Part shown: positions 5,570 to 64,000 of the stretch, in pieces
Position numbering within the stretch: the stretch's first letter is position 1
Layout of the letters: the number at the start of each line of letters is the position of its first letter
Origin: Methanothrix sp.
GTDB taxonomy: Archaea; Halobacteriota; Methanosarcinia; Methanotrichales; Methanotrichaceae
Assembly (NCBI GenBank): GCA_963682135.1
Contig: OY821645.1
Span: forward strand, 1,376,001-1,440,000
Length of the DNA: 64,000 nt
Reading direction: 5' to 3'
Notes under the pieces: model-generated
The model's input: the letters and a program-made list of their open reading frames with translations, nothing else
Told to the model about the DNA's origin: nothing
The model's database searches: none
Made by a program: the position numbers and the translations under genes

Positions 5570-5643
5570 GGACTCGTAGTATAGTCTGGATAGAATAGAG
5601 GCCTCCGGAGCCTCGGACCCGGGTTCGAATCCCGGCGGGTCCG
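5570..5643 (+). tRNA. tRNA-Arg(CCG), intronless, CCA not encoded
   Basis: Acceptor stem GGACTCG/CGGGTCC; anticodon arm GAGGC-CTCCGGA-GCCTC; T arm CCGGG-TTCGAAT-CCCGG. Confidence 0.93.
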
Positions 5644-19400: not shown

Positions 19401-22400
19401 GTTACGGGATGTGTGCCTGGTGAGGCCGGATAGGATTGCGTCCAGCCAGATTGCGCAACTTCCTCAACAGTGTAGCTGCCGGGCTCAATGCCGATAAAAG
19501 AATAGGTTCCGTCGGCGGCGGTAACTTTGCTGGCCACCTCGGTTCCCACTTTCATCAGCCGGATGGTCCAGCCGGCCAAACCGGGCTCGCCGCTGTCTTT
19601 GAGACCGTTGCCGTTCTTGTCCTCAAACTTCATGCCGGACAGAACGGTTGACCAGTAGTTGCCGAAATCCAGGTCAGTCGGTCCGGGGACTCCTGAGAGC
19701 AGAGTTACGGGATGTGTGCCTGGTGAGGCCGGATAGGATTGCGTCCAGCCAGATTGCGCAACTTCCTCAACAGTGTAGCTGCCGGGCACAACTCCCATAA
19801 ACGAGTATGAGCCATCGGCGGCAGTCACTGTGCTGTCGACCTCAGCACCCTCTTTCATGAGCCTGATGGTCCAACCGGCCAAACCGGGCTCGCCGCTGTC
19901 TTTGAGACCGTTGCGGTTCTTGTCCTCGAATTTTATTCCGGACAAACTGGTTGACCAGTAGTTGCCGAAATCCAGGTTGATCGGCCCAGGGACTCCTGAT
20001 ACCAGGTTTAGGGGATGCGTTCCTGAAGCCGGATAGGACTGAGTCCAGCCAGATTGCGGGGCTTCTTCAACCGTGTAGCTGCCGGGAGCAATGCCGGTGA
20101 AAGAATAGGTACCGTCGGCGGCGGTCACCTGGCTTTCAACCATTGTTCCTTCTTTTATCAGCCGGATGGTCCAACTGGCCAAACCGGGCTCGCCATTATC
20201 TTTGGCACCGTTTCCGTTAATATCTTCGAACTTCATTCCCGAAAAACCGGTGGTGCGGAAGTTGCCGAAATCCAGGTCAATCGGTCCTGGGACTCCTGAG
20301 ACCAGGTTTAAGGGATGCGTTCCTGAAGCCGGATACGACTGAGTCCAGCCTGCCTGGGCGGCCTCCTGCACGGTATAGCTGCCGGGCGCAATGCCGATAA
20401 AGGAATAGGTACCGTCGGCGGCGGTCACCTTGCTTTCGACCGTTGTTCCCTCTTTCATCAGCCTGATGGTCCAGCCGGAGAGGCCAGGCTCGCCTGCATC
20501 TTTGGCACCGTTTCCATTAAGATCTTCGAACTTCATGCCTGAAAAACCGGTGGTGCGGAAGTTGCCGAAATCCAGGTTGGTCGGTCCGGGGACTCCTGAG
20601 ACCAGAGTTACGGGATATGTGCCAGTTGTTGCAGGATAGGACTGAGTCCAGCCTGCTTGCGCAGCCTCTTCAACCGTGTAGCTGCCGGGCGCAATGTCGG
20701 CAAAAGAATAGGCTCCGTCGGCGGCGGTCACCTGACTGTCGACAATTGTTCCTTCTTTCATTAGCCGAATGGTCCAGCCTGAGAGTCCCGGCTCGCCGCT
20801 GTCTTTTGCGCCGTTTGCATTCAGATCTTCGAACTTCATGCCGGAGAGACCGCTGGCAATCACATTGCCGAAGAGATTTTCCCGCGATGGCATGTTGGTC
20901 AGGGTTACGGAGTGGTACTCCTCTGCGGGATAGGTCCGGACCCAGCCAGCCTTAGAAACCTCGTAGACCCGGTAGGTGTCCGGCTGCAGGTTCAGAAACT
21001 CGTATGTCCCCTCTTTGCCAGGCTCCCCGCTGGTGGTAGTGGTCTGCAGGAGGTTGTCGCTCTCATCCTTGAGCTGTATATCCCAGCCGGAGAGGGGCGG
21101 CTCGTCGGTATCCATTTTGCCGTCGCCATTCCTGTCGTGGAACTTCTTGCCGGAGATGGCAAGCTGATTGTTGCCGAACATTTTTCCCTGGGCAGGCAGG
21201 TTGGTCAGGGTTACGGTGAAGTACTCCTCAGCGGGAGCGGTCTTGACCCAGCCGGGCTTCTGGACCTCATAGACCCGGTAGGTGCCCGGCTGCAGGTCCA
21301 CAAACTCGTATGTCCCCTCTTTGCCAGGCTCCCCGCTGGTGGTAGTGGTCCGCAGGAGGCTGCCGCTGCTGTCCTTAAGCTGTATCTCCCAGCCGGGGAT
21401 GGGCGGCTCATCTGGGCCCTTTTCCCCGTTGGCGTCCTTGTCATGGAACTTCATGCCGGAGATGGAGACCGGTTGATAGAGACCGGCATCCCAGGACAAG
21501 TCCATGCTGCCCGACACCACATTAACCTTCCTTGTCCGATGAGTAACAGGATCGGCATCGCTGTCAAGTCCGTTATCAGCGCCTTGATCCTGGACTGTGA
21601 TGCTGTAGCCAGCCGGAGGCAGAAATTCCAGATAGTAGGCTCCTGCGGCAGGGCTCTCAAAGAGGTACTTTCCATCGGCGTCGGTGGTCTGGCTCGCGAC
21701 AATGTTATCTGCCGCGTCCATCAAGTACACAGTAACCCCTTCCAGGCCCTTCTCGCCTGCATCCTGGATGCCGTCGACGTCTTCATCCACCCAGACGTAG
21801 TCGCCCAGTCCATACTTGATCTCCACCCGGTAGTCCTCCACCTCGCCGTCAGATGCCGGGCCGTAGGAAGCAAGACCGGGCGAGCTGCTGAATCGAAGGC
21901 GGGCAAATGTGTACCCATCATTGGCATCGGCAGGCACAGAGAAGCTCACTGTCTGAGCGCCGGCGGAGAGCGCCTGATCGATGGCAATCTGCTCTCCTGC
22001 ATCGGAAAAGTCGCCGTCGCCATCGAAATCCATCCAGGCCTGGAGAATTCCCGGTGCCGAGGCGGTCACACTGAATGAGGACTGCTGGCCAATGATAATA
22101 TGATCCGAGAAGGTCGCCCCGTCCTCGTCGGCTCCGTCGCCATCGGCATTGGCCGTGGGCTGGCCGTCCGGCTCATAGTCCACGCTGGAGCCGAGATGGG
22201 GACCGGTCATCAGGTGGCGCGGCCCGTCGCTGGACCGGATGGTCTTGAATGTGTTAGGGGCATCGCCATAGTCCTCAGTGAGCATGTTTGGCGCGCCTGG
22301 AAGGGGGTCGGAAGAGAGAGAGCCGCCGAAAGTGGGCACGCCCCAGAAGCCCCAGTTGTCGGAAGCATCCGGGATGCAGGAGTAGCTCAGGCCCTCTTTG

Positions 22401-24016
22401 CTGCTGGAAGCAGGGCAGGCGACACGATCCATCTCCACTCCGCCAGAGTTGCAGAGGATCACAGGATCGCCATTGCTATTGCTGATGCCACCCCCAGAGG
22501 AGCCACGGAGATGAACTACCAGATAGCCTCCTGATGGGATAACTGTGCCGTCAGGAATGGTGGCCAATATGTAAGGGTTGTCATCATCCTTTATCGTCCA
22601 CTGCCCCACATTGAAGTCTGCGGTGCCCACGTTCTTCAGCTCCAACCGCTCCCAGGAAACAGTGCCGTCATTGTTGTCGTTCCCTTCCGGGTTGGGATAG
22701 ATCTCGTTTATTATTATCTTGTTTTCATACAGTCCGGCATCGACGCTCTTGCTCTGGCCGGGATCAAGCGTGATTTTGTCGCTTTTGCCCTGGTAGTCCA
22801 CATCGCTGTCTATGCTATCGTCGTTGCCCTGGTCTTTGGGGCTGAAGGTCTCTCCTGCGGGCGGGATGAACTGCACATAATAATCGCCCGGAACCAGGTC
22901 GATGAAGGAGTGGCTGCCATCGCCACTGGTTTGCGTATAGAAGCAGCCGACCTTGGAATTACAGTAATCTATTCTAACATTCGGTTCGCCTGGCTCGCCC
23001 GCATCCTGCAGGCCGTTGCCGTTCAAATCGCGCCAGGCTCTGCCCGACAAGGTTGCTCCTTCTGCGATGATCTGCAGGCCCGACGTATCGTCTGCCACAT
23101 AGGCATAGCTGCCGGAGACGGCCACGCCCCAGGCATGGCCTGGGGTGCTGCAATAGCCCACAGGACTTGGGCTGGTTGGGTTGATGATATCGATGATCTG
23201 CAGGCCAAACATCCCGTCGGCCACATAGGCATAGCTGCCGGAGACGACCACGTCATGGGCTATGCCTGGAGTGTCGAAATGGCCCACAAGATTTGGGCTG
23301 AAGGGATTGCTAACATCGATGATCTGCAGGCCCGACATTTCATCCGCCACATAGGCATAGCTGCCGGAGACGGCCACGCCCCAGGCAGAGCCTGGAGTGT
23401 CGCAATAACCCACAAGATTTGGGCTGGAGGGGTTGCTGACATCGATGATCTGCAGGCCCGACGCATCATCCGCCACATAGGCGTAGCTGCCGGAGACGGC
23501 CACGCCATAAGCAGAGCCTGGAGTGTCGCAATAACCCACAAGATTTGGGCTGGAGGGGTTGCTGACATCGATGATCTGCAGGCCCGACGCATCATCCGCC
23601 ACATAGGCGTAGCTGCCGGAGACGGCCACGCCAAAAGCAGAGCCTGGGGTGTCGCAATGGCCCACAAGATTTGGGCTGGTTGGGTTGCTGATATCGATGA
23701 TCTGCAGGCCATAAAACCAGTCGGCCACATAGGCGTAGCTGCCGGAGACGGCCACACAAAGGGCAAAGCCTGGGGTGTCGTAATAGCCCACACGACTTGG
23801 GCTGGTTGGGTTAATGATATCGATAATCTGCAGGCCCGACATTTCATCCGCCACATAGGCGTAGCTGCCGGAGACGGCCACGCCATTGGCACGGTCTGGG
23901 GTGTCGTAATAGCCCACTTTCAACCAGGCCCCCTGGGCGGTGGCGAGAAGCAGCATAGCCAGCAGCGCCAATTGTAGCAGCAGTCTGCTGCATTCCATCC
24001 ACGGCTTAATCATCAT
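16439..24016 (-). CDS. Giant modular surface protein: LVIVD repeats, SdrD-B/CnaB repeats, lamin-tail domain, GEVED domain, DUF11-like domains; start at 24016 or 23998
   Basis: Signal peptide; VAVSGSYAYVAD...GLQIID repeats; IINEIYPNP; DGEVEDY; SGMKFED.N.NG..D.GEPGL.GW repeats. Confidence 0.92.
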   Translation of the reverse strand: MMIKPWMECSRLLLQLALLAMLLLATAQGAWLKVGYYDTPDRANGVAVSGSYAYVADEMSGLQIIDIINPTSPSRVGYYDTPGFALCVAVSGSYAYVADWFYGLQIIDISNPTSPNLVGHCDTPGSAFGVAVSGSYAYVADDASGLQIIDVSNPSSPNLVGYCDTPGSAYGVAVSGSYAYVADDASGLQIIDVSNPSSPNLVGYCDTPGSAWGVAVSGSYAYVADEMSGLQIIDVSNPFSPNLVGHFDTPGIAHDVVVSGSYAYVADGMFGLQIIDIINPTSPSPVGYCSTPGHAWGVAVSGSYAYVADDTSGLQIIAEGATLSGRAWRDLNGNGLQDAGEPGEPNVRIDYCNSKVGCFYTQTSGDGSHSFIDLVPGDYYVQFIPPAGETFSPKDQGNDDSIDSDVDYQGKSDKITLDPGQSKSVDAGLYENKIIINEIYPNPEGNDNNDGTVSWERLELKNVGTADFNVGQWTIKDDDNPYILATIPDGTVIPSGGYLVVHLRGSSGGGISNSNGDPVILCNSGGVEMDRVACPASSSKEGLSYSCIPDASDNWGFWGVPTFGGSLSSDPLPGAPNMLTEDYGDAPNTFKTIRSSDGPRHLMTGPHLGSSVDYEPDGQPTANADGDGADEDGATFSDHIIIGQQSSFSVTASAPGILQAWMDFDGDGDFSDAGEQIAIDQALSAGAQTVSFSVPADANDGYTFARLRFSSSPGLASYGPASDGEVEDYRVEIKYGLGDYVWVDEDVDGIQDAGEKGLEGVTVYLMDAADNIVASQTTDADGKYLFESPAAGAYYLEFLPPAGYSITVQDQGADNGLDSDADPVTHRTRKVNVVSGSMDLSWDAGLYQPVSISGMKFHDKDANGEKGPDEPPIPGWEIQLKDSSGSLLRTTTTSGEPGKEGTYEFVDLQPGTYRVYEVQKPGWVKTAPAEEYFTVTLTNLPAQGKMFGNNQLAISGKKFHDRNGDGKMDTDEPPLSGWDIQLKDESDNLLQTTTTSGEPGKEGTYEFLNLQPDTYRVYEVSKAGWVRTYPAEEYHSVTLTNMPSRENLFGNVIASGLSGMKFEDLNANGAKDSGEPGLSGWTIRLMKEGTIVDSQVTAADGAYSFADIAPGSYTVEEAAQAGWTQSYPATTGTYPVTLVSGVPGPTNLDFGNFRTTGFSGMKFEDLNGNGAKDAGEPGLSGWTIRLMKEGTTVESKVTAADGTYSFIGIAPGSYTVQEAAQAGWTQSYPASGTHPLNLVSGVPGPIDLDFGNFRTTGFSGMKFEDINGNGAKDNGEPGLASWTIRLIKEGTMVESQVTAADGTYSFTGIAPGSYTVEEAPQSGWTQSYPASGTHPLNLVSGVPGPINLDFGNYWSTSLSGIKFEDKNRNGLKDSGEPGLAGWTIRLMKEGAEVDSTVTAADGSYSFMGVVPGSYTVEEVAQSGWTQSYPASPGTHPVTLLSGVPGPTDLDFGNYWSTVLSGMKFEDKNGNGLKDSGEPGLAGWTIRLMKVGTEVASKVTAADGTYSFIGIEPGSYTVEEVAQSGWTQSYPASPGTHPVTLLSGVPGPTDLDFGNYWSTVLSGMKFEDKNGNGLKDSGELGLSGWTIRLKKEGTEVASKVTAADGTYSFIGVEPGSYTIEEVAQLGWTQSYPASPGTHPVTLVSGVPGPTDLDFGNRRFVQALQVAITADKLNVLPGQELTFYITINHDSSIGLNSMIVEYTLPSGLSFIGSNYSPLGVTQNADGTTTITWTFAAFSPQMAAQTAESDKSGDANAPSTTITVTSGVQPDAPQSLTGAVVVTGTSSEVTIAEARGTVSVNVEKLTGQPVHLNKTSDLLEVWPGATIGYTIAYESLLAKTALTNVVITEQASPDLIFLSASPAPDQGTDNIWTIGDLAPGQKGTISVFFQVKNASNLSFWSESSVSGSGFASTYRRLSTETQSQGLRNSVTLTCEEFTPVSTSYFVKLRDRDGTSLLKTEHGSGDYHSEEVAALQMQNRSISTAGSLKAAYRPTSFLLPGGRSINYSSEISSLTRTRNRATQASTSNEIRYAKSLEMDQKLLVDKNETLISVEGSLQGQVHLGALKKDGEAVKPTPVFESSQEYAGSFRFNQSLEDYGSNVRLIGNASGQGEVTSDQRLKKSQRSYEHGNGSYESEEQASTAESYMAKDLSVSSDPAYGYGKWQSGIWSKSSGKSYLGQEVKGADYIKEETRASGLNDLSSNLSYRGQGRFRTVSEPDNRSALDLDEEYVGEYTIQRKIRLGGVSRFDRPHLTLNKTGRLVPGTAAADYTITVQNDGNTALGPVYVWDIFPAGTDYLTSSLKPNRLQPGYANWSLLYLGIGQSVTISLRLNVTDRQDELVNLVYASGGHNDEWVTAGNMSVMQFGWLGCCQPDLLLEKQARIDAVDGRTIWYRVLLKNRANVSLAAQVTDRLPAGLELLNASAEPQVQGENLVWVTGAIPAGKSRFIEYRTQAAQNGRFVNTALAEVHALDGSGGSAVQASATVTVGEATSYAEDGWRPPEWGLDRMEMICDDEIAGEGGSCGCPLYE
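19052..21470 (-). repeat. Intragenic tandem SdrD-B/CnaB repeats: six of 300-303 bp plus two of ~306 bp
   Basis: GTTGCCGAAATCCAGG recurs at 19052, 19355, 19658, 19961, 20261, 20561; a second subtype pair spans ~20865-21470. Confidence 0.9.
23065..23920 (-). repeat. Intragenic 126-bp LVIVD tandem repeats (~7)
   Basis: TAGCTGCCGGAGACG recurs every 126 bp. Confidence 0.9.
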
Positions 24017-24280
24017 GAGACCATGTCGACAATGCCTGCGGCTGCACACGGCCTGCGCGCGCCCTCTCGGGCGGACCGAAATCCCTGCCATTGCTCCCTT
24101 TCCCTCCCCTGACCGAAGAAAGCTGATTTGCGACAGCCTCCCCTGCACTGGGAGGTGCCCGCATAACTGATACAAAACTATGCCAATTTATGCTGAAGAA
24201 TAATTCAGGTATAAAATCTTTACCATTGTTGGCAATCATTGCAGAAAATGGCAAAAAAATGTTATTAAGATATCTGAATC

Positions 24281-33553: not shown

Positions 33554-35368
33554 ATGGCGCAACCGTTAGTGCCAGATACCAGCGTGGTAATTGATGGCAG
33601 AGTCTCTGCCAAGATCAAAGCAGGGGAGCTGCAGGGTCGCAGGATCGTGGTACCTGAAGCAGTGGTAGCCGAGCTGGAAGCTCAGGCCAATCATGGACGA
33701 GATATCGGTCTTAGAGGATTGGAAGAACTAAGGAAGCTCTCTGAACTTGCCAAGACAGGCAAGATCGAGCTGGAATACGTGGGCATCAGGCCCAATTTGG
33801 ACCAAATCAAGCTCGCCGGTGGAGGAGAAATCGACGCCATGATTCGGGATGTAGCCCTGGAACTTGGCGCCTCCTTCCTTACCAGCGATCAGGTTCAGTT
33901 CCGAGTGGCAGAAGCTATGGGCCTGGATGTGGAATACGTCCGCCCGCAACGAGAGGCTATCAAGCCCTTAAGCCTGGAGAAATACTTCACAGAGGATACT
34001 CTTTCCGTGCATCTCAAAGAAGGTGCCATGCCCATGGCCAAACGCGGCCGGGTGGGAGACTTTTCCCTGGTTCGTATAGGAGAGAGGCCGCTATCGGAAA
34101 GAGAGCTAAGAGACCTCTCTCGAGAGATCTACGAGAGGACCAAGGCGGATCCGGAAGGCTATGTGGAGATGGAAAAGATTGGTGCGGCTGTAATTCAACT
34201 AGGGCCCATGAGAATCGCGATAGCCAAACCCCCGTTCTCTGACGGCCTGGAGATAACAGCCGTTCGGCCTGTAGCTAAGGTGAGCTTTGACTCTTACCGC
34301 CATAGCGGCATGCTAAAGGAGAGGCTGAAGGAGAGTCAGAGGGGCATCCTCATCGCCGGCCCGCCGGGATCAGGAAAATCCACCTTCGCCGCAGGAGTTG
34401 CCGAGTATCTCTTAAGCTGCAACTATGTGGTCAAGACCCTGGAATCGCCTCGCGATCTGCAAGTTCCCGACGAGATCACCCAGTACGGGCCGCTGGAAGG
34501 CAGCATGGAAGCCTCGGCAGATATCTTGCTCCTGGTCAGGCCGGACTACACCATCTACGATGAGGTCCGAAAGACGCGCGATTTCCAGGTCTTTGCAGAT
34601 ATGCGATTGGCAGGCGTGGGCATGATAGGTGTGGTGCATGCCAACAAGCCCATCGATGCCTTGCAGCGTCTTCTCGGTCGCGTGGACATGGGCATGATTC
34701 CCCAGGTGGTGGATACGGTGGTCTTCATCGAGAAAGGCGAGGTCACCCATGTCCTGGATGTGGAGTTCGTGGTCAAGGTTCCCGCCGGCATGGTAGAAGC
34801 GGACTTGGCCCGGCCGGTGATTGTGGTCAAGGACTTTGAGACGGGCCAGGCGGAGTATGAGCTATACTCCTATGGCGAGCAGATCGTGGTCATGCCTGTA
34901 TCCAAAGAGAGCCGGAAGCCCGCACCATCCTGGAAGCTGGCCAGTCGGGAGATAGAGAAGGAGATATCGCATCATGTGCGAGGACCCTTCCAGGTGGAGA
35001 TGCTCACCGACTCATCCGCAGTTATCCACGTTCCCCAGGACGAAGCTGCGAGAGTGATTGGCAAGGCCGGCAAGAACATCGATCAGATCGAGAAGAACCT
35101 GGGACTGCACATTGACGTGCGCACTCAAGATGCGCCGGTCCTGGCAACGCCCAAGGTGGAAGAGACGGCCAAGCATCTCATCATCTGGTTAGAGGGCATG
35201 GCAGGAGAGTCTGTAGAGGTCTTCGTAGGCGAGGAGCCAGTCTTCACTGCCACCGTGGGCCGAAGAGGTGATATCCGGGTGGCCAAGTCCTCGGAGATGG
35301 CCAAACGCATCATCAAGCGCATGAAGGTCGGAGAGAAGATCGTGGTGCAAAAGGCAAGCTCGGATTGA
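33554..35368 (+). CDS. PIN-domain ATPase with KH domain (PINA-like)
   Basis: VPDTSVVIDG PIN; GPPGSGKST; YDEVR; C-terminal VIGKAGKNI KH motif. Confidence 0.92.
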   Translation: MAQPLVPDTSVVIDGRVSAKIKAGELQGRRIVVPEAVVAELEAQANHGRDIGLRGLEELRKLSELAKTGKIELEYVGIRPNLDQIKLAGGGEIDAMIRDVALELGASFLTSDQVQFRVAEAMGLDVEYVRPQREAIKPLSLEKYFTEDTLSVHLKEGAMPMAKRGRVGDFSLVRIGERPLSERELRDLSREIYERTKADPEGYVEMEKIGAAVIQLGPMRIAIAKPPFSDGLEITAVRPVAKVSFDSYRHSGMLKERLKESQRGILIAGPPGSGKSTFAAGVAEYLLSCNYVVKTLESPRDLQVPDEITQYGPLEGSMEASADILLLVRPDYTIYDEVRKTRDFQVFADMRLAGVGMIGVVHANKPIDALQRLLGRVDMGMIPQVVDTVVFIEKGEVTHVLDVEFVVKVPAGMVEADLARPVIVVKDFETGQAEYELYSYGEQIVVMPVSKESRKPAPSWKLASREIEKEISHHVRGPFQVEMLTDSSAVIHVPQDEAARVIGKAGKNIDQIEKNLGLHIDVRTQDAPVLATPKVEETAKHLIIWLEGMAGESVEVFVGEEPVFTATVGRRGDIRVAKSSEMAKRIIKRMKVGEKIVVQKASSD

Positions 35369-52805: not shown

Positions 52806-54818
52806 TTGAGCATATTCGGTGTGGATATTGCCAGTGGCTCGCCATCCGCTAGACGGATGCCCAGCTACTCTTTGGTGATCCTGGACGAGGGAAACGTGGC
52901 TGGTTTTCACATGATCAGCCGGCATAAGCTCATTCGGCTCATCAGGGAGCGCCAGCCTGAGATCGTGGCCATGGACAATCTGCACGAGCTGGCTGCAGAT
53001 CGAAGGGAGCTGATCGATATCTTGCGCCGGATGCCTCCCACTACAAAAATGGTGCAGGTAACGGGCTCAGAGAGGCCGCAGTCCCTCATCAAGCTGGCCC
53101 GCTATCACGGCATCACCTTCGATCGCACCAACCCCTTGCAAGAGGCGGAGGTCTGCGCTCGGCTGGCGGCCAAAGGTGTGGGCGTTGTTCTCTCTGCCTT
53201 CCAGGAGAGGACATGGATCAAGGTCAGCCGGAGGCGCTCTTTAGGCCGGGGCGGCTGGAGCCAGAACCGCTATACCCGCAAGATCCACGGCGCTGTGATG
53301 GGTCTGGCGCGAGAGGTGGAAAAGCAGCTACGTGAGGCCGGACTGCAGTACACCACGCGGGCCGTGGAGGGCCTGGGCGGATATACTCGGGCCGAGTTTG
53401 TGGTGGAAGCGCCCCGCGAGATGGTGCGCATCAATCCCGGCTACTACAGCGATGCTCAGCTCTTGGTGCAGAGCATGGAGCGGCCCGAGCTGCAGTACCA
53501 ACCGCTCATGCAAAGGCGCGGTTACATCATCGTGGGGCTGGACCCGGGAACGACGACGGGCATCGCCGCGCTGAACCTATCCGGCGAGCTGGTGGACCTG
53601 ACCAGCTCCAGGGGCCTGTCCTCCTCAGATGTGATTGAATGGATCGCTGCGCGGGGCAGATCGCTGCTGGTCGCCACAGATGTATTCCCTACGCCAGGCG
53701 GAGTGGAGAAGGTCAAGCGCGCTTTTAATGCCGTTCTCTACTCTCCGGGTGGAGACATTCCGGCGGAAGAGAAGATCGCTTTGGGAAAGGAATTTAGCTA
53801 CAAGAACGATCACGAACGCGATGCTCTGGCGGCAGCCATCAGCGCATTTAAAAAATATAAAAATAAGTTTTTGCTGGTGGAAAAAAAGTCGCCTCCCGAG
53901 GTCGATCCCGATGAGGTGAAAGCGTTGGTGGTGCGAGGCTACTCCATCGAAAACGCCATCGCCGAATTTGTGCCCTCTTCGGTTACTTCAGTTCAAAAGG
54001 GAGCGCCGCGGGATATGGCGGAGGAAATTCTTGATCATCCCCTCGATGCCTCTCCTGATGTCGCAGCCCTGCGCCAGCATAGCCAGCAGCTTGCCGAGCA
54101 GGTCAGAACGTTACGCTCTTATGTGGATGAGCTTCGCTCCCGTTTAGCGGAAAAAGAGGCAGCTCTCAATATCGCGAATGGCAAACTGGATCGAATGAGG
54201 GACAAGACGGCGCGAGAGATTAAACGGCAGCATGAGATCAAGATCCGGGACAAAGAGATCGAACGCCTCCGGGCGGTTCTGCGTTCGGAGAGAAAATATA
54301 TCAAGAAACTGAAAAAAATATTGGAGCGTCAGAAGAAGGCGGAGGTCATCGAGGAGACACGCGGCCTGCAAAGGCTCAAGCCGCTGGCGGCCTTTACCCG
54401 CGAGTCTATTCAGCAATCTATCGAGCAGCATCGTTTGGGAAAGGGTGATTGGGTCTTTCTGGAAGATGCCAGCGGCGGCGGCAGGAGCACGGTTGAGCTT
54501 CTGCGAGAGCTGGAAATTTCCGGTTTGGTGGCCGGGGGCGATCCCGGTCCTGCCATGCGTGAGCACTTCTTGCAGATGGGCATTCCCATTTTCACCCGCA
54601 TGAATCTGCCTGTGCAGATGGTCAATAACATGCCATTTGTGCGCAAGGAAGATGTAGCTGCCGCCAGCGCTGCCTGGGAGGAGGAGATGAAGGATCGCCA
54701 GGCCAGGCTGCAGGCGGAGCGGCTGGAGAGCCTTTTCCAGGAGTACCGGGTGGAGAGACAGAAAGAGGAGAAGCGAAAGCAAAAGCTTGCCCGAGGCCCC
54801 CCTGGCTCTGAGAATTGA
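52806..54818 (+). CDS. DUF460 RNase H-fold/coiled-coil protein
   Basis: GVDI; GGWSQNRY.R; IVGLDPGTT; NDHERDALAAA; long coiled coil. Confidence 0.88.
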   Translation: MSIFGVDIASGSPSARRMPSYSLVILDEGNVAGFHMISRHKLIRLIRERQPEIVAMDNLHELAADRRELIDILRRMPPTTKMVQVTGSERPQSLIKLARYHGITFDRTNPLQEAEVCARLAAKGVGVVLSAFQERTWIKVSRRRSLGRGGWSQNRYTRKIHGAVMGLAREVEKQLREAGLQYTTRAVEGLGGYTRAEFVVEAPREMVRINPGYYSDAQLLVQSMERPELQYQPLMQRRGYIIVGLDPGTTTGIAALNLSGELVDLTSSRGLSSSDVIEWIAARGRSLLVATDVFPTPGGVEKVKRAFNAVLYSPGGDIPAEEKIALGKEFSYKNDHERDALAAAISAFKKYKNKFLLVEKKSPPEVDPDEVKALVVRGYSIENAIAEFVPSSVTSVQKGAPRDMAEEILDHPLDASPDVAALRQHSQQLAEQVRTLRSYVDELRSRLAEKEAALNIANGKLDRMRDKTAREIKRQHEIKIRDKEIERLRAVLRSERKYIKKLKKILERQKKAEVIEETRGLQRLKPLAAFTRESIQQSIEQHRLGKGDWVFLEDASGGGRSTVELLRELEISGLVAGGDPGPAMREHFLQMGIPIFTRMNLPVQMVNNMPFVRKEDVAAASAAWEEEMKDRQARLQAERLESLFQEYRVERQKEEKRKQKLARGPPGSEN

Positions 54819-54829
54819 GAACGAATCAT

Positions 54830-54891
54830 TTAAGATCTTTTCATACATCTTATGAATCCTGACTTAAGATCTTTTCATACACCTTGTGAAT
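54830..54891. promoter_or_regulatory. Tandem palindromic operator TTCATA-N5-TRTGAA (two copies, 34-bp period) upstream of amt1
   Basis: TTCATAcatctTATGAA 54840-54856 and TTCATAcacctTGTGAA 54874-54890, each within a ~28-bp direct repeat. Confidence 0.65.
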
Positions 54892-54931
54892 TATACATAA
54901 TTCGTCCTAAATATGCTTATTAGATAGGATT

Positions 54932-56233
54932 ATGTCTTACTTATTGGTGGTCATGTTGCTTTCCGTCCGTTCGCTACTATTATTATGTTTACTAATATCA
55001 ACACTGCTGGCCGGCGCAGCTTCGGCTGAAGAATCTGCTATCAATGGCGCTGATAATGCCTGGGTGCTCATCAGTGCTGCTCTCGTCCTGATCATGATTC
55101 CCGGCGTGGGCCTCTTCTACGGAGGCATGGTTAGAAAGAAGAATGCCATTTCAACGATCATCTTCAGCTTTGCCGTTATGGGCATCATAAGCCTGCAGTG
55201 GATCTTGTACGGCTATACCCTGGTCTTCGGAAAAGACATAGGCGGCCTCATCGGTGGCCTGGACTTCCTGGGACTGGCGGGTGTTGGCATGGGCGTGAAA
55301 GAGGGGCTGACTATTCCCTCGCTCACCTTTATGATCTTTCAGGCCATGTTCGCCATCATCACCGTCTCTCTTATCACGGGTTCCTACGTGGAGCGGATCA
55401 AGTTCAGCTCATTTCTCGTCTTCTCCTTAGCCTGGGCTACTCTGGTCTACGATCCTGTGGCTCACTGGGTTTGGGGCGGGGGCTGGCTGCAGCAGATGGG
55501 CGCCCTGGACTTTGCCGGCGGCATAGTGGTGCACATCACGGCAGGCGTCTCTGCCATGGCCGTAGCTATGGTTATCGGTGTGCGTAAGGGCTTTGGCACG
55601 GACCCGATGGAGCCGCATAACATTCCCACCACTGTGATTGGCGCGGCTCTGCTCTGGTTTGGATGGTTTGGTTTTAACGCGGGCTCCGCTCTGGCGGCAA
55701 ACGGCATCGCCGCCAATGCTTTTGTCACCACCAACACCTCCGCCGCGGCTGCAGCCACCACCTGGATGCTCCTCTCCTGGCGGCAGAGAGCGCCTTCTGC
55801 CTTGGGCATGGTGACGGGCGCAGTGGCAGGCCTCGCGGCAATAACGCCCGCCGCAGGCTATGTGACGCCCCTGGCGGCCATTCCCATTGGCATCGTAGCT
55901 GCCATTGTTGGCTACTATGCCATCGTCCTCATCCGAGGAAGCGCCAGGGTGGACGATTCACTGGACGTTTTAGCCTGTCATGGCATTGGCAGCACCTGGG
56001 GGGTACTGGCTACGGGCATCTTTGCCACCATCGGAGCTACGGGTCTGCTCTCCGGAAATTCTCATCAATTAATGGTGCAGGCCGCATCTGTGGCGGTAAC
56101 CTGGGGCTACTCATTTATTGTCACCTATGGCCTGGCCAGGATCATCGATGCGGTCATGGGGTTGCGGGTGCGGGATGATGAAGAATCGGTGGGCCTGGAC
56201 ATCAGCCAGCATGGCGAAGGCGCTTACATGTAA
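54932..56233 (+). CDS. amt: Ammonium transporter (AmtB-like)
   Basis: LFYGG, FQAMFA, DFAGG.VVH, LWFGWFGFN.GS, DD.LD...H. Confidence 0.96.
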   Translation: MSYLLVVMLLSVRSLLLLCLLISTLLAGAASAEESAINGADNAWVLISAALVLIMIPGVGLFYGGMVRKKNAISTIIFSFAVMGIISLQWILYGYTLVFGKDIGGLIGGLDFLGLAGVGMGVKEGLTIPSLTFMIFQAMFAIITVSLITGSYVERIKFSSFLVFSLAWATLVYDPVAHWVWGGGWLQQMGALDFAGGIVVHITAGVSAMAVAMVIGVRKGFGTDPMEPHNIPTTVIGAALLWFGWFGFNAGSALAANGIAANAFVTTNTSAAAAATTWMLLSWRQRAPSALGMVTGAVAGLAAITPAAGYVTPLAAIPIGIVAAIVGYYAIVLIRGSARVDDSLDVLACHGIGSTWGVLATGIFATIGATGLLSGNSHQLMVQAASVAVTWGYSFIVTYGLARIIDAVMGLRVRDDEESVGLDISQHGEGAYM

Positions 56234-56244
56234 AGTGGGGGAAT

Positions 56245-56583
56245 ATGAAGAAGATTGAAGCCATAATTCGGCCTGAAAAGCTGCACCTTTTGCGTGGCAA
56301 GCTGGACAGTAAGGGCTTTTCGGGAATGACTGTGAGCGAGGTCAAGGGCCGGGGCCGGCAGAAGGGTGTCACCTTGCAGTGGCGGGCCGGTGATTACCGG
56401 GTGGAGTTCTTGCCCAAGATGAAGCTGGAGATGGTAGTGGATGACAAGGATGCGGAAGCTGTCATCGACCTCATCTGCGAGCATGCCCAAACGGGCGAAG
56501 CAGGGGACGGCAAGATCTTCATCTATCCGGTGGATGATGTGGTGCGTGTGCGCACGAAGGAGCGGGGGTGCGGGGCGGTATAG
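56245..56583 (+). CDS. glnK: PII nitrogen regulatory protein
   Basis: MKKIEAIIRP, GRGRQKG, LPK, TG..GDGKIF. Confidence 0.95.
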   Translation: MKKIEAIIRPEKLHLLRGKLDSKGFSGMTVSEVKGRGRQKGVTLQWRAGDYRVEFLPKMKLEMVVDDKDAEAVIDLICEHAQTGEAGDGKIFIYPVDDVVRVRTKERGCGAV

Positions 56584-56638
56584 CCGCGCGCCCTCTTTTA
56601 GCGATCTATTTTCCTTAATGCGCCTCCCGCTATTATCC

Positions 56639-56686
56639 TTGTCATTCTCTCATCGGGATTTCGCGTCTTTATGCCTTCGCCTGAAA
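56639..56686 (-). repeat. Solo copy of the conserved core of the 60-63.7 kb repeat
   Basis: Reverse complement TTTCAGGCGAAGGCATAAAGACGCGAAATCCCGATGAGAGAATGACAA aligns without gaps to array core TTTCACGCGAAGGCGCGAAGCCGCGAAGTTCCGATGAGAGATGGACAA. Confidence 0.75.
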
Positions 56687-56985
56687 ACTTTTTGCGTCTG
56701 ACGCGAAGGGCGCGAAGAAGACAACCATTGATCGCCGATCCTCACGTTCTTTCTTCATAGTAATATTTGTACGGAATAGATGATGGAAGGGCGATGTCCA
56801 TCCTTCAGCCAGGATGCTGATGCAGTCCAAGGATGGACGGACCCGGTCTGCGCTGCCCCTGTGGGCAAGGCTCATCGGAGACGAGCGCATTCGTTCTCCC
56901 AGAGGCCGAGCCGAGAGGCATTGCAGAAGATCACACTTCCTCGGGATTACTGTCTTGCCGTAAAAAAGTGACCAGGGTATTCTTC

Positions 56986-57921
56986 TTACCTTGGAAACTC
57001 GGCCCCTTTTGGAGCCTTGAAGCAGGTGCAATCAAAGACGCCAGTCACATCTGAGCCGAATCCGTTGATGCCCTTCTGGTATGTTTCGGGCATGCTCAGA
57101 TATCCGCCGGAGCAGCAGGGCAGCCAATCGTCGTCTTCCTCTATCTCTTCTACCGATGCCGTGAGGTTCATCAGCTTCTCAATGTGGTAGGTTCCCCAGT
57201 AGTCTTCATCCACATCCACCAGCGGCTTCTTCCAGGCTGTGTTTACGATGAACTCATTTTCGTCGTCGTCTTCTTGGGATACGATATCAGGATCTCCCTG
57301 CAATAGCCCGATGTGCGCACGGCCTTCTGTCATATCCTCAGAGATGTTCATCATGCTCACGCTGGGGTCCTCCTCAGAGATGAAGTCCTTGGCCAGGACT
57401 TCCAGTTCCTTGTCCAGGGCATGGGCATATTCCACTTCGTGGTGCATTAGCGTGAAAGATCCGCGATTCTTAAGCCAGGTCTTCTCCTTGAGCAGGGAGT
57501 TGAACTGCAGCGGACTGGCAGCGTAAAATCCCGTACCTATGCTGAGGGCTATTGGACTATATGTCATGGTGTTATCTTCTTTAAGTTGAATGCAGCTTAG
57601 CGCCTCCGTATAGTCCGGTTCATAGTTGTCGCTCTGATCGACTCCATAATTGGTATAATCGGAACTTTCTGTGGACAGCATCGATTCTGTATCGATCGTG
57701 CCGCTGCCGTGGCTGTAGTCCAGAACTTCAACTCCATTGTTGCCCGTTCCGTTGAGTCCCAGGGTATTGGGCATCTTCGCGTACTTGTAGTTCATGAAGT
57801 AGCCCGAGCCGGTCACGCTCTGTTGTATATCCAGAGTGAGGTTGTTCTTAAGGGTATATTCCGCTGATGCAATACTGGTCAAGAAGGCCACTAATAATAG
57901 TATCATCCCTAGCTTCTTCGT
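56986..57921 (-). CDS. Secreted beta-rich hypothetical protein with Cys-rich tail; start probably ACG at 57921 (first ATG at 57906)
   Basis: GGAGG RBS then ACG-KKLGMILLLVAF signal peptide; SVTGSG, HGSG, DEDYWGTYHIEK, WLPCC. Confidence 0.8.
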   Translation of the reverse strand, partial: TKKLGMILLLVAFLTSIASAEYTLKNNLTLDIQQSVTGSGYFMNYKYAKMPNTLGLNGTGNNGVEVLDYSHGSGTIDTESMLSTESSDYTNYGVDQSDNYEPDYTEALSCIQLKEDNTMTYSPIALSIGTGFYAASPLQFNSLLKEKTWLKNRGSFTLMHHEVEYAHALDKELEVLAKDFISEEDPSVSMMNISEDMTEGRAHIGLLQGDPDIVSQEDDDENEFIVNTAWKKPLVDVDEDYWGTYHIEKLMNLTASVEEIEEDDDWLPCCSGGYLSMPETYQKGINGFGSDVTGVFDCTCFKAPKGAEFPR

Positions 57922-58144
57922 ATCTATCCCTCCTGTGAATTGCGCCTGACCTTCACCAGAATTGCCTTCTAAGAAGGTCAAGTAATCTTACTTACTGATC
58001 ACGTATATGATATTATTGGATGAAAAATCATAACGATTACAGTAATTATCACAACAGTTATGAATTAGCATCTAATACATTGAGATAAAAATAAAAATTT
58101 CTGCTCATAGGAAGCTCCGAGGCAGTAAGAAAAATCACGGCAGG

Positions 58145-59934
<1,790 letters not shown>

Positions 59935-60001
59935 GCTCTATCACGTTCCTCGATGGAAGACCAACGAGCTGCAGATGATATAAAAACTTTGTTAAAATAT
60001 T

Positions 60002-60018
60002 TTCATACTTGTTATGAA
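60002..60018. promoter_or_regulatory. Palindromic operator TTCATA-N5-TATGAA upstream of amt2
   Basis: TTCATActtgtTATGAA, ~16 bp upstream of minus-strand TATA-like TTTTATAT (~59978-59985). Confidence 0.65.
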
Positions 60019-60083
60019 GAGCGCATAACTACATCACATTCTAAAAAGTGCCGATTATCTCTCTATAATATGCTGTGTCGCAG

Positions 60084-60475
60084 GATTATTATAACCAAGC
60101 AGCTGCGGCCAACCACAAAGGCACGAAGGCACAAAGGACGCACAAAGAGATTCGCAGCGGCCCTCCAGCTTTGCGATTTTTGCAGATATGTAAGCCAGTC
60201 GAGCCTGATAGCCAGTCGACCTGTACCGGACCGTCCGGGCCTGCTGCTATTTCGTCAGGGTGAGATGGATTACCTAACAAGCGCTCGTATTCAGGGTAGT
60301 AGGCCGTTCGAGCTGAGATCAGGAATTTCATGTGAAGGTGGAAAGCCGCGAAGTTCCGATGAGAGAAGGACAATTTTTCCCAGATCCCTCAGGTCGCGCC
60401 GTTGGAGACGTTTCTCGACAAAGCCATTCGGGACGACTTCTGCCATCCGCCAGGCGGGCCGGGCTGCCTGGCGAG
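60084..60475 (+). repeat. Array repeat copy 1 (subtype X, diverged middle)
   Basis: TTATAACC 60089, AACCACAAAGGCACGAAGG 60111, TTTCTCGACAAAG 60411. Confidence 0.85.
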
Positions 60476-60544
60476 TTTGCAGCTGTTCTTGCTGGGGCCC
60501 GCGGTCTGCGGAGCCGGGTTTGCTGTGATGCGGTCCGAGTGGGC

Positions 60545-61035
60545 AGGTTTTTGGAAATGATGGCAGTCTACGTTTATTATTAACAGATAAATATAACTAA
60601 ACAACTATGGTCAAACCACAAAGCACACAAAGATCACAAAGGACGCACAAAGACGTTTCAAGGACAATTATCGGCAGTATCCGGCTGGCCGATCTTTGCG
60701 TGACTGTGAGCCAGCCGCGCTCGGCACGCTCGACCGTGGGCCGGGCCGTCCGGGCTCGCTTCACTCGTCTCCGGACGGGCGCTCGGGCGGGCTCTCGCAT
60801 GGGCGCGCGGGCCTGCGTGGGCTTGTGGCCTGGGGGGCCGGTCGGGCCGAGATCACGGATTTCACGCGAAGGCGCGAAGCCGCGAAGTTCCGATGAGAGA
60901 TGGACAATTTTTCCCAGAGCCCCCGGGCCGCGCCGTTGGAGACGTTTCTCGACAAAGGCCATTCGGGGCGACTGCCGTCGTCTGCCAGGCGGGCCAAGCT
61001 GCCGGGCAAGCGCTCGTGCCAGGTGGGCCAGGAGG
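60545..61035 (+). repeat. Array repeat copy 2 (subtype Y)
   Basis: TTTTGGAAATGATGG leader, ATATAACT 60591, AACCACAAAG 60614, TTTCTCGACAAAG 60945. Confidence 0.9.
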
Positions 61036-61068
61036 AAGGATGGCGGAAAGCATGCTGAGGCATGAGCC

Positions 61069-61545
61069 TCAATCTAACTTGCCCTTAAGCGTATTGAGAT
61101 CATTACCTCTTATCAAAATTGAGTTGACATCGACCTCTTTGGCATGTTGATGCATTCCGGAGTCATCTGTGAATAATATGGCATCTTCTCTCTTGGCCAA
61201 AGCTATAAAATACGAGTCAAACCCGGAACAACCGGTCTCTAATGCCACATCCCACGCGACATTGAAAATAGCCTCTTCATCTGCTACGTTATATGATTTT
61301 AGGATTCCTTTTGATGCTCTTGCGGCCAGAGTTCTGCCAGCGAGCCGCTTGGCTACCGCAGCGGTTTCCACTACACAGACCTTAGGAACATGAACTTCTA
61401 CATCTCGCTCTTCTATAAGCTTGATGAGAGCTTTGCATTTTTCGTGGGTTTCCTGCTCTCTGGAATAGGCCTCTTGGGAGAGTGACCGGAGTGGTTTGAA
61501 GATGCTCTTAACTATAACGGATGTATCTAAAACGGCCCTAATCAT
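61069..61545 (-). CDS. vapC: VapC-family PIN-domain toxin
   Basis: VLDTSV, VVETAAV, GFDSYFIA and TDD acidic residues; overlaps antitoxin gene by 8 bp. Confidence 0.9.
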   Translation of the reverse strand: MIRAVLDTSVIVKSIFKPLRSLSQEAYSREQETHEKCKALIKLIEERDVEVHVPKVCVVETAAVAKRLAGRTLAARASKGILKSYNVADEEAIFNVAWDVALETGCSGFDSYFIALAKREDAILFTDDSGMHQHAKEVDVNSILIRGNDLNTLKGKLD

Positions 61546-61732
61546 AGTATATTCTTGTCCGCGTCTCTTTCAGGACTGCGTCAATATCTTCCCTGGCTTC
61601 AGGCTCGCCCAGATCGTCCAGAAGATCGCTGAAGCTCTCATGAATGGTGATGCTCACCCGAGAATTATTGGGGAGATTCAGGCCCCCGAGAGGCTTGAGC
61701 ACATTATTTTCATAAATAGCTTTTATTTTCAT
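61538..61732 (-). CDS. vapB: AF2212/DUF104-like antitoxin
   Basis: IKAIYENNVLKPL..L.LP....V.ITI; directly upstream of vapC. Confidence 0.85.
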   Translation of the reverse strand: MKIKAIYENNVLKPLGGLNLPNNSRVSITIHESFSDLLDDLGEPEAREDIDAVLKETRTRIYYD

Positions 61733-61841
61733 ATCGGCACCTGATATTTAGGCGAAATGTAAACTGATATATGGACATGATCAATATTTAGAGCTGCCGA
61801 TGATGTCTTTTTTTCTTCATAACTCGGAAATTTGCTGCTAC

Positions 61842-62340
61842 GTGGGACCGGGAGGCCGGTCGGGCCAGGTGTGCCAGCTTCTGGCAAGGGAGGTTTCCGG
61901 GCGCCGGATTTTGAGAAACGATGTCAGTTTTTAATACTATTAGCTGATAATTATAACCTGGCAACCACGGCCAACCACAAAGGCACGAAGGCACAAAGGA
62001 TGCAAAAAGAGATGCGCGGCGGCCCTCCAGCTTTGCGATCCTTGCGGGCCACCGCCTGTGGGCCGGGCCGTCCGGGCTCGCGTCGCTCGTCTGCGGACGG
62101 GCGCTCGGGCGGGCTCCCGCATGGGCGTGCGTGCCTGCGTGGGCTTGCTGCCTGGGGGCTGGTCGGGCTGAAATCACGGAATTCACGCGAAGGCGCGAAG
62201 ATTCGATGAGAGATGGACAATTTTTCGCCATGGCCCTCGGGCCGCGCCGATGGAGTCGTTTCTCGACAAAGGCCCATCCGGGGCGACAGCCGTCGTCCGC
62301 CAGGCGGGCCAGGCTGCCAGGCAAGCGCTCGTGTCAGGAG
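61842..62340 (+). repeat. Array repeat copy 3 (subtype X)
   Basis: CCAGCTTCTGG leader, TTATAACC 61951, AACCACAAAGG 61973, TTTCTCGACAAAG 62259. Confidence 0.9.
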
Positions 62341-62345
62341 ACTTG

Positions 62346-62510
62346 GAGGCCGGTCGGGCCCGATGGCCAGGTGTGCCAGCTTCTGGTAAAGGGAGTTTTC
62401 CGGGCGCAGGATTTTGGGGGCAGCCTCATTTCACCATTATTATTAGATAATAATTATAACCGAGCAGCTACGGCCAACCACAAAGGCACTAAGGCACAAA
62501 GGACGCACAC
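62346..62510 (+). repeat. Array repeat copy 4 (subtype X, 3'-truncated before hicA)
   Basis: CCAGCTTCTGG leader, TTATAACC 62454, AACCACAAAGGCACTAAGG 62476. Confidence 0.85.
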
Positions 62511-62540
62511 GATGATATATGTTACTAACAAAAATTATGG

Positions 62541-62762
62541 CTAATCATCCGAGAGCCACTCTTCACGAGAGATTCTTCCTTCTCGAAGAATCTCTGAGAT
62601 GAGATTTGCGCCGATCTCTCGTTTATGGTAGTTCGGTATGCGCACGAAGTTGTCTCCGCGGACCATGTAATCGTGATCCGAACCTGGAAATGGTCCTTCG
62701 AACCCTATTTTTTTCAATCGCCTAATGAGCTTGGCTCTTGAAACCGGTCCTAGTTTACTCAA
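62541..62762 (-). CDS. hicA: HicA-family toxin
   Basis: LIRRLKKIGF....GSDH..M......V.IP.H..EI...L...IL.E. Confidence 0.88.
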   Translation of the reverse strand: MSKLGPVSRAKLIRRLKKIGFEGPFPGSDHDYMVRGDNFVRIPNYHKREIGANLISEILREGRISREEWLSDD

Positions 62763-63012
62763 TTGCAGTCACCGGTTCTATTGATGCGGTTATCACATGC
62801 CCGCCTATTGGTGGAATGGACCGTCCCATGCGGAGCCTGAGTGCTATCCAGCCTTCGATAACCGAGATGAGCTCTTTGCGCGTCTCCTCGATAGTCTTGC
62901 CTGTGGCCCAAGCGCCCTGAAGCTCGGGTACTGAGGCGAAGATTGGTTCCTCATCATCGATAATCTTGTAAACAGCCAGTTCTAGAGCAGCCTCGATATA
63001 TTCAGAGAACAT
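62755..63012 (-). CDS. hicB: Short HicB-family antitoxin
   Basis: A.VPELQG..ATG.TIEE....L...IE.W.......G..IP; no C-terminal DNA-binding domain. Confidence 0.88.
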   Translation of the reverse strand: MFSEYIEAALELAVYKIIDDEEPIFASVPELQGAWATGKTIEETRKELISVIEGWIALRLRMGRSIPPIGGHVITASIEPVTAIE

Positions 63013-63097
63013 GTTATGCTTCTATTGAGAGATGATGGAAAATATAACTTGCGCCAATGCTAATTCACCGGTGCTGGCTGAGATGTGGATTGCAGGA

Positions 63098-63581
63098 GCT
63101 GGATTTTTGGAAATGATGGTGGTTCGCCATTAATATTGGCTGAGAATTATAACCGAGCTGCTACTGGCACCACAAAGACACAAAGCGCACAAAGACGTTC
63201 AAAGAGCAATTCTCGGCAGTCTCCGGCTGGCCGATCTTTGCGTGTCTGTGGTCCAGCCGCGCTCGGCACGCTCGACCGTGGGCCGGGCCGTCCGGGCTCG
63301 CGTCACTCGTCTGCGGATGGGCGCGCGGGCGGGTTCCCGCATGGGCGCGCGGGCCTGCGTGGGCTTGCGGCCTGGGGGGCTGGTCGGGCCTAGATCACGG
63401 ATTTCACGCGAAAGCGCGAAGCTGCGAAGTTCCGATTAGAGAAGGACAATTTTTCGCCATAGCCCTCGGGCCGCGCCGTTGGAGGCGTTTCTCGACAAAG
63501 GCCATCCGGGGCGACAGCCATCGTCCGCCAGGCGGGCCAGGTGTGCCAGGCAAGCGCTCGTGCAGGGTGGGCCGGTATGGG
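63098..63581 (+). repeat. Array repeat copy 5 (subtype Y)
   Basis: TTTTGGAAATGATGG leader, TTATAACC 63147, ACCACAAAG 63169, TTTCTCGACAAAG 63488. Confidence 0.9.
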
Positions 63582-63600
63582 CTTCATTGCGGGCTTTGGG

Positions 63601-63714
63601 CCAGCCGTTCTCGGCTGCTCCTCGACTGTGAACCAGGCCGTCCGGGCTCGCGTCACTCGTCTGCGGATGGGCGCGCGGGCCTGCGTGGGCTTGTGGCCTG
63701 GGGGGCCGTATGGG
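63601..63714 (+). repeat. Array repeat copy 6 (internal fragment of subtype Y)
   Basis: GGCCGTCCGGGCTCGCGTCACTCGTCTGCGGATGGGCGCGCGGGC matches copy 5. Confidence 0.85.
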
Positions 63715-64000
63715 TTTGGAAAAGATAGATGCAGAAGAGATCTATGGATAGACAAACCTGTCAGGAGTCGTGGCAAGCTATGGATCAATTTTAATATGAA
63801 TCAGATCATTTAGATTTTTGTTTTGCCGGTTGTGCTAACATGCATCTACCCAAAGGAGGAGTTCCCTCATTCCCGAAGAGATACAAGCGCAGTACTACGA
63901 TCTAAATGATAATCAGATGCCCTATGGCGGAGCCACTGACATTCACGGCTAGATCCTCAGGAAAGTCTCCAAAGAAGAGCAAGACAAGATGATGGCTCGC

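Follow-up and report, generated by a model that had tools for sequence, protein, structure and literature searches.

The window analysed here, 64 kb of DNA from Methanothrix sp., holds at its right end an array of GC-rich repeats that alternate with toxin-antitoxin (TA) operons (Table 1). Comparison of the window with itself by blastn, together with alignment of the copies, identifies six copies in a single orientation between 60084 and 63714, at the places given in the original prediction for this locus, and every one of the ordered sequence blocks listed there is visible in the alignment. Copy 2 (60545-61040) is 85% identical to copy 4 (63104-63573) over 484 nt (E 1e-157) and 88% identical to copy 3 (62058-62338) over 290 nt. 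Copy 1 is more diverged, as had been noticed, and partial, surviving as two stretches. The sequence at 62345-62509 retains only the 5' part of the unit. Five matches to a 26-nt core pattern lie in the window, against 0.01 expected from shuffles. One core-pattern scan over 185,579 species-representative genomes returned 41 loci, numbered L001-L041, which provide the material for comparison.

The unit of about 500 bp that had been described is a real repeat, but it merges two separable modules, E-A-B and C-D, each of which ends at a 16-nt joint, GGAGGCCGGTCGGGCC, situated between modules. This joint occurs five times in the window, always inside the array (0-3 mismatches; 0.79 occurrences expected). 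On direct reading it is a near-palindrome over most of its length, about 15 bp long around a centre of 1 nt, and its layout, a pair of 4-nt GC palindromes with five bases between them, appears to resemble the SfiI recognition pattern. Measured from joint to joint, module C-D spans 191-194 nt in six cases and module E-A-B spans 303 nt, both in the window and in L038. Module E carries T-runs and module B a GC-rich tail of up to 73% GC. In module A an AT-rich (AT) island is followed about 25 nt downstream by three to four tandem 8-mers, a spacing kept in 21 copies, and module C combines a second tandem 8-mer set (CGCGAAGG type) with the near-invariant core CGATGAGAGA..GACAA and a run of five T (T5) that is invariant in 18 long-form copies. 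We use Z for a shorter GC-rich tail found upstream of some joints. The AT island and the T-runs may serve as promoter or terminator.

The 8-mers of module A lie at 60114-60148, 61976-62010, 62479-62509 and 63171-63197 in the window. Comparison with L001, L003, L017, L021, L031, L034 and L038 indicates that the 8-mers within a copy share one variant, CACAAAGG in the window and CACAGAGG or CGCAGAGG in other genomes, and such concerted change suggests either a bound factor or slippage-driven homogenisation.

Three kinds of segment make up the arrays: the non-coding module C-D, the non-coding module E-A-B, and gene cassettes, which either replace the interior of E-A-B or precede a GC-rich tail and joint of their own. 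Since genes stand between an E-A head and a B or Z tail in several segments, E-A-B looks like the cargo-less form of the same segment.

Table 1. Features of the repeat array and of the related short copy, in window coordinates
Feature	Position	Strand	Remarks
Seventh, short copy: C core after inverted CTTCGCG-type arms	56625..56720	-	downstream of P-II gene
Copy 1, module A: AT island and tandem 8-mers (CACAAAGG type)	60084..60183	+	88% to copy 3 over 100 nt
Copy 1, modules C-D, diverged	60302..60475	+	80-85% to copies 2 and 4; 73-75% in C-D alignment; B module and joint degenerate
Copy 2, modules E' (3' end)-A-B	60545..60832	+	B 93% to copy 4
16-nt joint	60833..60848	+	1 mismatch
Copy 2, modules C-D	60849..61035	+	ends in first 5 nt of joint (..GGAGG)
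TA1 cassette: PIN toxin and AF2212-like antitoxin	61036..61850	-	own AT-rich upstream region
16-nt joint	61851..61866	+	exact
Copy 3, modules E-A-B	61867..62153	+	joint to joint 303 nt
16-nt joint	62154..62169	+	3 mismatches
Copy 3, modules C-D	62170..62344	+	joint to joint 191 nt
16-nt joint	62345..62360	+	exact; unbroken D-joint-E junction, the 'empty' counterpart of the TA1 site
Partial copy, modules E-A only	62361..62509	+	stops after 8-mers
TA2 cassette: HicA and UPF0150/HicB	62510..63085	-	
Copy 4, modules E' (3' end)-A-B	63098..63374	+	
16-nt joint	63375..63390	+	2 mismatches
Copy 4, modules C-D, then degenerate joint	63391..63580	+	
Partial copy, module B fragment (middle part of unit) with degenerate joint	63584..63708	+	84-97% to copy 4 B
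Start of further cassette DNA	63774..64000		92.5% to L016 2643-2868

Besides the six copies of the array, the window has a seventh, the short copy in the first row of the table. The array does not stop at 63714, where it had been thought to end. Window 63343-64000 is 81% identical to L025 1066-1726, where another C-D copy comes next, and the last 227 nt match a stretch of L016 upstream of a 169-aa open reading frame (ORF) of no known family, so that a further cassette of the array probably follows past the window end. What the window, from a Methanothrix-like archaeon, holds is one end of a co-oriented cassette array. The regions L016 2107-2868 and L025 1501-1858 are the counterparts of the window end, and the L016 ORF shows no similarity to the PIN protein of L020.

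Pfam places the genes of both operons between the copies in known TA families, in line with what had been proposed for them. TA1 comprises a PIN toxin at 61069-61545 (-) (Pfam PIN, 1.9e-10) and an AF2212-like antitoxin at 61538-61732 (-) (4.6e-10); TA2 comprises HicA at 62541-62762 (-), whose match to HicA_toxin (1.8e-5, 25.2 bits) is just below the cut-off of 27, and UPF0150/HicB at 62755-63012 (-) (2.9e-26). As pairs of adjacent small toxin and antitoxin genes, both are predicted type II TA operons, and both are convergent with the repeats. Outside the array, the 49 scanned ORFs of the remaining 60 kb include no TA or defence pair. Orthologues of TA1 occur in L017 (93%) and L037 (85%) with different neighbours. 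At L017 2713-3103 the PIN orthologue is internally deleted (window 61397-61509 missing) and the antitoxin gene region is kept.

To the cargo survey, 14 loci with the long form or several module pieces contributed 92 ORFs. TA or defence families lie within 2 kb of the repeats in ten of these loci: DUF4258 in L003 and L040 (in L003 with an MqsA-like zinc-finger partner, identified by NCBIfam), MntA/HepT in L009 and L035, Shedu in L009, MntA in L034, two HicA/HicB pairs in L012 and another in L040 by blastn, DUF2281/PIN in L017, ParE in L038, a MazE-like protein in L021, and a GNAT pair with AAA_21/DUF4435 in L025. L001, L013, L018 and L031 have no TA or defence family, although L031 does have small family-less ORF pairs. 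Searches of 24 cassette ORFs against NCBIfam returned only the MqsA-like zinc finger and weak GNAT matches, and Pfam at E<=1 gave nothing usable for 11 family-less cassette ORFs. Pairs of small neighbouring ORFs (83-155 aa), unmatched in Pfam and NCBIfam, occupy cassette positions at L031 598-1440, L009 3375-3743, L012 2293-3092, L017 3088-3749 and L034 1476-2092, and are candidate new TA pairs.

The arrays follow a consistent polarity. Joints are co-oriented in all nine sources that have two or more of them, and so are 110 of the 111 module matches across 16 sources; genes occur on both strands. The window array and 12 loci together yield 38 joint instances (<=3 mismatches), 17 of them exact. 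A D-end, a B-end or a Z tail stands upstream of the joint, and downstream of it come C (13 instances), E (17) or other DNA (8, at least 4 of them unique cassette DNA). Within the joint the columns are 93% identical; in the 30 nt on either side the figure is 49-50%, low there because several unrelated sequences meet at the joint.

Individual breakpoints fall at the joint. L031 and L035 share 96% identity as far as its last base, after which the similarity ends. The TA1 insert (61036-61855) starts after the first 5 nt of a joint and its end repeats the preceding 13-14 nt; its removal would restore the D-joint-E junction that is intact at 62320-62380. In L003 and L040 the DUF4258/MqsA-like cassette shares its break position in the joint with TA1 and lies between direct B-end repeats of about 50 nt. 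Of 444 ends of between-locus alignments, 59 are no more than 5 nt from a joint; random positions give 6.7 +/- 2.5. Content between repeats is not identical from genome to genome: to the left of the conserved copy 4 region stand HicA/HicB in the window and the GNAT pair in L025. In these alignments, neighbouring cassettes are seen to vary between genomes beside conserved flanks.

Twelve Methanothrix/Methanotrichaceae genomes account for 40 of the 41 loci, as many as 10 of them in a single genome; the one Chthoniobacterales locus has no other similarity and is taken as a chance match. Long C-D copies occur in ten loci (14 copies). Among themselves the window C-D copies share 84-89% identity (73-75% for copy 1), about the same as the 84-86% that they share with the L009 copy, and they form no clade in a maximum-likelihood tree, in which sub-families are common to several genomes; the tree is poorly resolved, with 3 of 15 inner branches supported, so that a single origin of the window copies stays formally possible. 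Judged from its spread over these genomes, the repeat family is not a local duplication confined to one locus. Plasmid and phage collections gave no match to window 60040-64000 with blastn in distant mode.

The remaining loci mostly carry a short form, in which the C core, often after inverted CTTCGCG-type arms, lies between ordinary genes (L002, L004-L008, L010, L011, L014-L016, L019, L020, L022-L024, L026-L030, L032, L036, L037, L039 and L041, and the seventh window copy). Its core of about 48 nt, tandem CGCGAAG 8-mers followed by CGATGAGAGAAGGACAATTCTTGCCACAC, is near-invariant. Neighbouring genes include RFC, DnaJ and cas1/cas2 (with the element between the latter two in L007 and L023); in L015 the short form lies upstream of an ammonium-transporter gene (amt) orthologous to that of the window, and comparison of L015 with window 54700-54990 reveals different upstream genes. 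TA families were found near 5 of 24 short-form loci, a count based on 61 of the 111 listed ORFs after repeat-overlapping or nested-antisense ORFs were dropped. Two loci, L020 and L021, contain short/long hybrids. The short form, which has inverted CTTCGCG/CGCGAAG arms, looks like a miniature inverted-repeat transposable element (MITE).

We propose, tentatively and with somewhat less than even confidence, that the locus is a cassette array reshuffled by recombination at the 16-nt joint. Recombination is what we infer from the layout described above. Segments, coding and non-coding alike, would be gained, lost and re-ordered as DNA is broken and rejoined at the joint or within it, and the enzyme would be a sequence-specific recombinase or transposase encoded elsewhere. 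The GC-rich tail and joint would take the positional role that attC has in integrons, the non-coding modules would act as cassettes without cargo and spread the site, and the TA cassettes, with their own upstream regions, may stabilise the array. The array looks like a gene-cassette platform of a kind not yet described. The cassette-capture platform of the original prediction finds support in the co-orientation, the single joint and the varying cassettes beside conserved flanks; the recombinase that it would need was not found, and movement is an interpretation of these patterns.

Several observations weigh against this proposal. There is no integrase, transposase or reverse transcriptase among the 49 ORFs scanned left of the array (window 1-58000), and the only recombination genes in the 14 loci (+/-2 kb) are a DDE transposase (L021) and an rve fragment (L001). 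Cassette borders are non-uniform, some after a full joint and some inside it. TA2 is bordered by a truncated A on one side and a truncated E on the other, and neither border has a joint. At the left junctions of both TA1 and the DUF4258 cassette the 3' half of the joint is missing, although two full sites exchanging in a simple reciprocal way would have left it there. Single-stranded DNA folds of nine tails and joints are no better than shuffles (z -1.6 to +1.9), and no empty/filled pair was obtained at one orthologous chromosomal site. We note that the 93% identity of the joint is inflated because its instances were selected by similarity, and that the breakpoint statistic (59 of 444) is partly circular because module copies themselves begin at the joint, its random positions having been drawn beyond the repeats too. 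The loci, moreover, are +/-2-kb pieces of contigs from metagenome-assembled genomes, many at contig ends (19 of 41 within 2 kb of one).

In the main rival reading, possible though in our view rather unlikely, the arrays are instead a passive scaffold, in which a lineage-specific family of dispersed MITE-like repeats piles up in permissive TA 'junkyard' islands with no dedicated enzyme or site, and arrays grow by tandem duplication, unequal crossing-over, and homologous or short-homology exchange. Tandem duplication alone would yield co-orientation, whereas random MITE insertion would not give 110 of 111 matches in one direction. The presence of the short form in ordinary intergenic regions (RFC, DnaJ, cas1/cas2, amt), the short/long hybrids, the TA genes that are also common near short forms, the heterogeneous cassette borders and the lack of a recombinase among the ORFs scanned are all consistent with passive accumulation. 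Homologous exchange, however, should not unite unrelated flanks at one 16-mer, and both sides of the joint vary independently. That the joint is far better conserved than its surroundings, and that two unrelated cassettes break at the same base inside it, likewise speaks against passive accumulation.

Reshuffling at the joint can also be put in a stronger form, which we regard as unlikely. The Methanotrichaceae would own a cassette-capture system whose enzyme recombines at the 16-nt near-palindromic joint, producing co-oriented arrays that exchange TA and defence operons, together with two selfish non-coding 'empty' cassettes, within and between species. In function, such a system would be an archaeal counterpart of the integron, with neither its site nor its enzyme related to the integron's.

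A further alternative, improbable in our judgement, would make the repeats multicopy functional RNA or regulatory units, with the AT island as an archaeal promoter, the 8-mers as a 5' leader or operator array and T5 as a terminator. It predicts a transcript of about 290 nt, or antisense control of convergent TA operons, and it draws on the fixed distance between AT island and 8-mers, the invariant T5, the concerted change of the 8-mers between genomes and the convergence of both window operons with the repeats. Searches at the RNA level argue otherwise. Rfam 15 gave no match to the array (59900-64000) at E<=1, and the only match in the whole window at gathering thresholds is a tRNA at 5570-5643. 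Folded as RNA, neither strand of A-B-C does better than shuffles (z -1.2, +0.3, -1.2), and the structures differ between two copies. RNAalifold on 18 C-D copies gave -22.9 kcal/mol with a covariation term of +0.12 and compensatory changes in 2 of 35 pairs, and on 23 short forms only 4 pairs with a covariation term of +0.02. Gene orientation downstream of module A, as read from the maps, is mixed, with about five genes sense and about five antisense. The second suggestion of the original prediction, a multicopy structured RNA or element family that gathers TA modules, accordingly stands as a non-coding multicopy family with TA or defence genes near 10 of 14 long-form or multi-module loci, and finds no support as a structured RNA. 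A regulatory or RNA role of the AT island, the 8-mers and the T5 run could nonetheless coexist with either a cassette array or a passive scaffold.

Descent from a decayed protein-coding gene family is very improbable. Long ORFs (120-190 aa) do run through the GC-rich units on both strands, and a 178-aa repeat ORF has six matches in the protein database; these matches, however, are unnamed or 'hypothetical', each on 1-3 contigs of <=4.4 kb, and the ORFs are rich in Arg, Pro and Gly, as any GC-rich frame would be. Indels that are not multiples of three, found in two alignments and as short as 1 nt, separate copies that are otherwise 85-90% identical, and none of five ORFs inside the repeats belongs to a Pfam family, as expected from the earlier claim of frame-breaking indels and no conserved protein. 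The repeats are non-coding, with no conserved reading frame and no RNA-fold signal. An assembly artefact of collapsed or chimeric repeats is scarcely credible, since, although repeats do break assemblies and nearly half of the loci lie close to a contig end, independent assemblies (L012, L017, L031 and L038) have the same module order and spacing and the window copies all differ from one another.

The left neighbour of the array is an ammonium-transporter/P-II pair at 58145-59934 (-). This pair and another at 54932-56583 (+) face each other across 1.5 kb, a 331-aa ORF between them (56986-57981, -) has no Pfam or NCBIfam match, and the distance from the second amt gene to the start of the array, upstream of it, is about 150 nt. 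Core archaeal genes make up the other 49 scanned ORFs, among them those for EF-2, EF-1alpha, formylmethanofuran transferase, pyruvate:ferredoxin oxidoreductase and MutS/MutL. Elsewhere in the window, a 2578-aa ORF (16439-24175, -) with ten SdrD B-like domains, seven LVIVD repeats and DUF11 probably encodes a giant surface or sheath-associated protein, and 33554-35368 (+) encodes a 604-aa protein with PIN, secretion-type ATPase and KH domains.

Methanothrix species are among the main acetate-consuming methane producers, and to our knowledge little is known of accessory-gene movement in them. A repeat-delimited array with a single joint would give a testable handle on gene flux in these archaea, and the outcome would show whether integron-like logic evolved independently outside the IntI/attC system. 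Because the repeats break assemblies, TA and defence islands of Methanothrix are probably under-represented in metagenome-assembled genomes.

Several known classes were considered and set aside. Clustered regularly interspaced short palindromic repeats (CRISPR) are rejected, as they had been originally: such arrays alternate identical repeats of 23-50 nt with unique spacers of comparable length, whereas the units here are 190-300 nt long at 73-89% identity, with genes between some and nothing between others. The same holds for an insertion sequence (IS), given that the unit ends have no terminal inverted repeats (the only inverted pair in 58000-64000, at 63805-63910, is outside the units) and that no transposase lies in or adjoining the array. 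Type III toxin-antitoxin RNA repeats are rejected on the features seen, TnpB/IscB guide-RNA scaffolds for want of a fold signal, and C/D-box small RNA for want of a D box.

Among mobile elements, mobile insertion cassettes carry cargo between IS-like ends and are mobilised in trans. The repeats resemble these and MITEs in having empty (E-A-B, 303 nt) and cargo-bearing versions with the same two ends and in forming a dispersed, multicopy, non-autonomous family, but they lack terminal inverted repeats and a regular target-site duplication, their copies are strictly head-to-tail, and they nest at their own end sequence. Repetitive extragenic palindromic (REP) elements and bacterial interspersed mosaic elements (BIMEs), which are associated with RAYT transposases, are short GC-rich near-palindromes that lie in intergenic regions, often clustered, at operon ends. 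The array has GC-rich, intergenic, clustered near-palindromes in common with them, whereas its modules are 190-300 nt long with non-palindromic interiors and are associated with cassettes instead of operon ends, and no HUH gene was seen. The pdif sites of Acinetobacter plasmids are 28 bp long, with two 11-bp arms around a 6-8 bp spacer, and alternate in orientation. Like the pdif/Xer modules that they bound, the segments described here are discrete, often TA pairs, delimited by short putative recombination sites and found in varied contexts; unlike them, they have 16-nt joints that are all co-oriented, with no evident Xer-type dyad with a 6-8 bp spacer.

Sedentary chromosomal integrons and clusters of attC sites lacking integron-integrases (CALINs) offer a further comparison. 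In the openly accessible full-text literature we found no description of these repeats, and neither Methanothrix, Methanosaeta nor Methanosarcinales is named in the running text of a study of archaeal integrons (Ghaly et al. 2022, PMC9668308). No IntI tyrosine recombinase is present in the 49 window ORFs or the 92 ORFs of the 14 loci; the right side of the array lies beyond the window, so that a CALIN-like state is conceivable. Sites of the attC type are imperfect hairpins of 57-141 nt that end in a conserved 7-nt core, whereas here the 16-mer is the only sequence common to all joints, does not contain the attC core consensus, and follows tails with no hairpin signal. The cassette borders are heterogeneous, and the two non-coding modules, of 192 and 303 nt, are long and show conservation between species. 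The likenesses are those of arrangement: a co-oriented array in which a repeat comes after every cassette and carries a conserved core at its 3' edge, differences in cassette content from genome to genome, many non-coding cassettes, and TA cassettes of either orientation, each with an upstream region of its own. Both have co-oriented sites that enclose variable cassettes, and the array, not an integron by membership, is integron-like in its layout.

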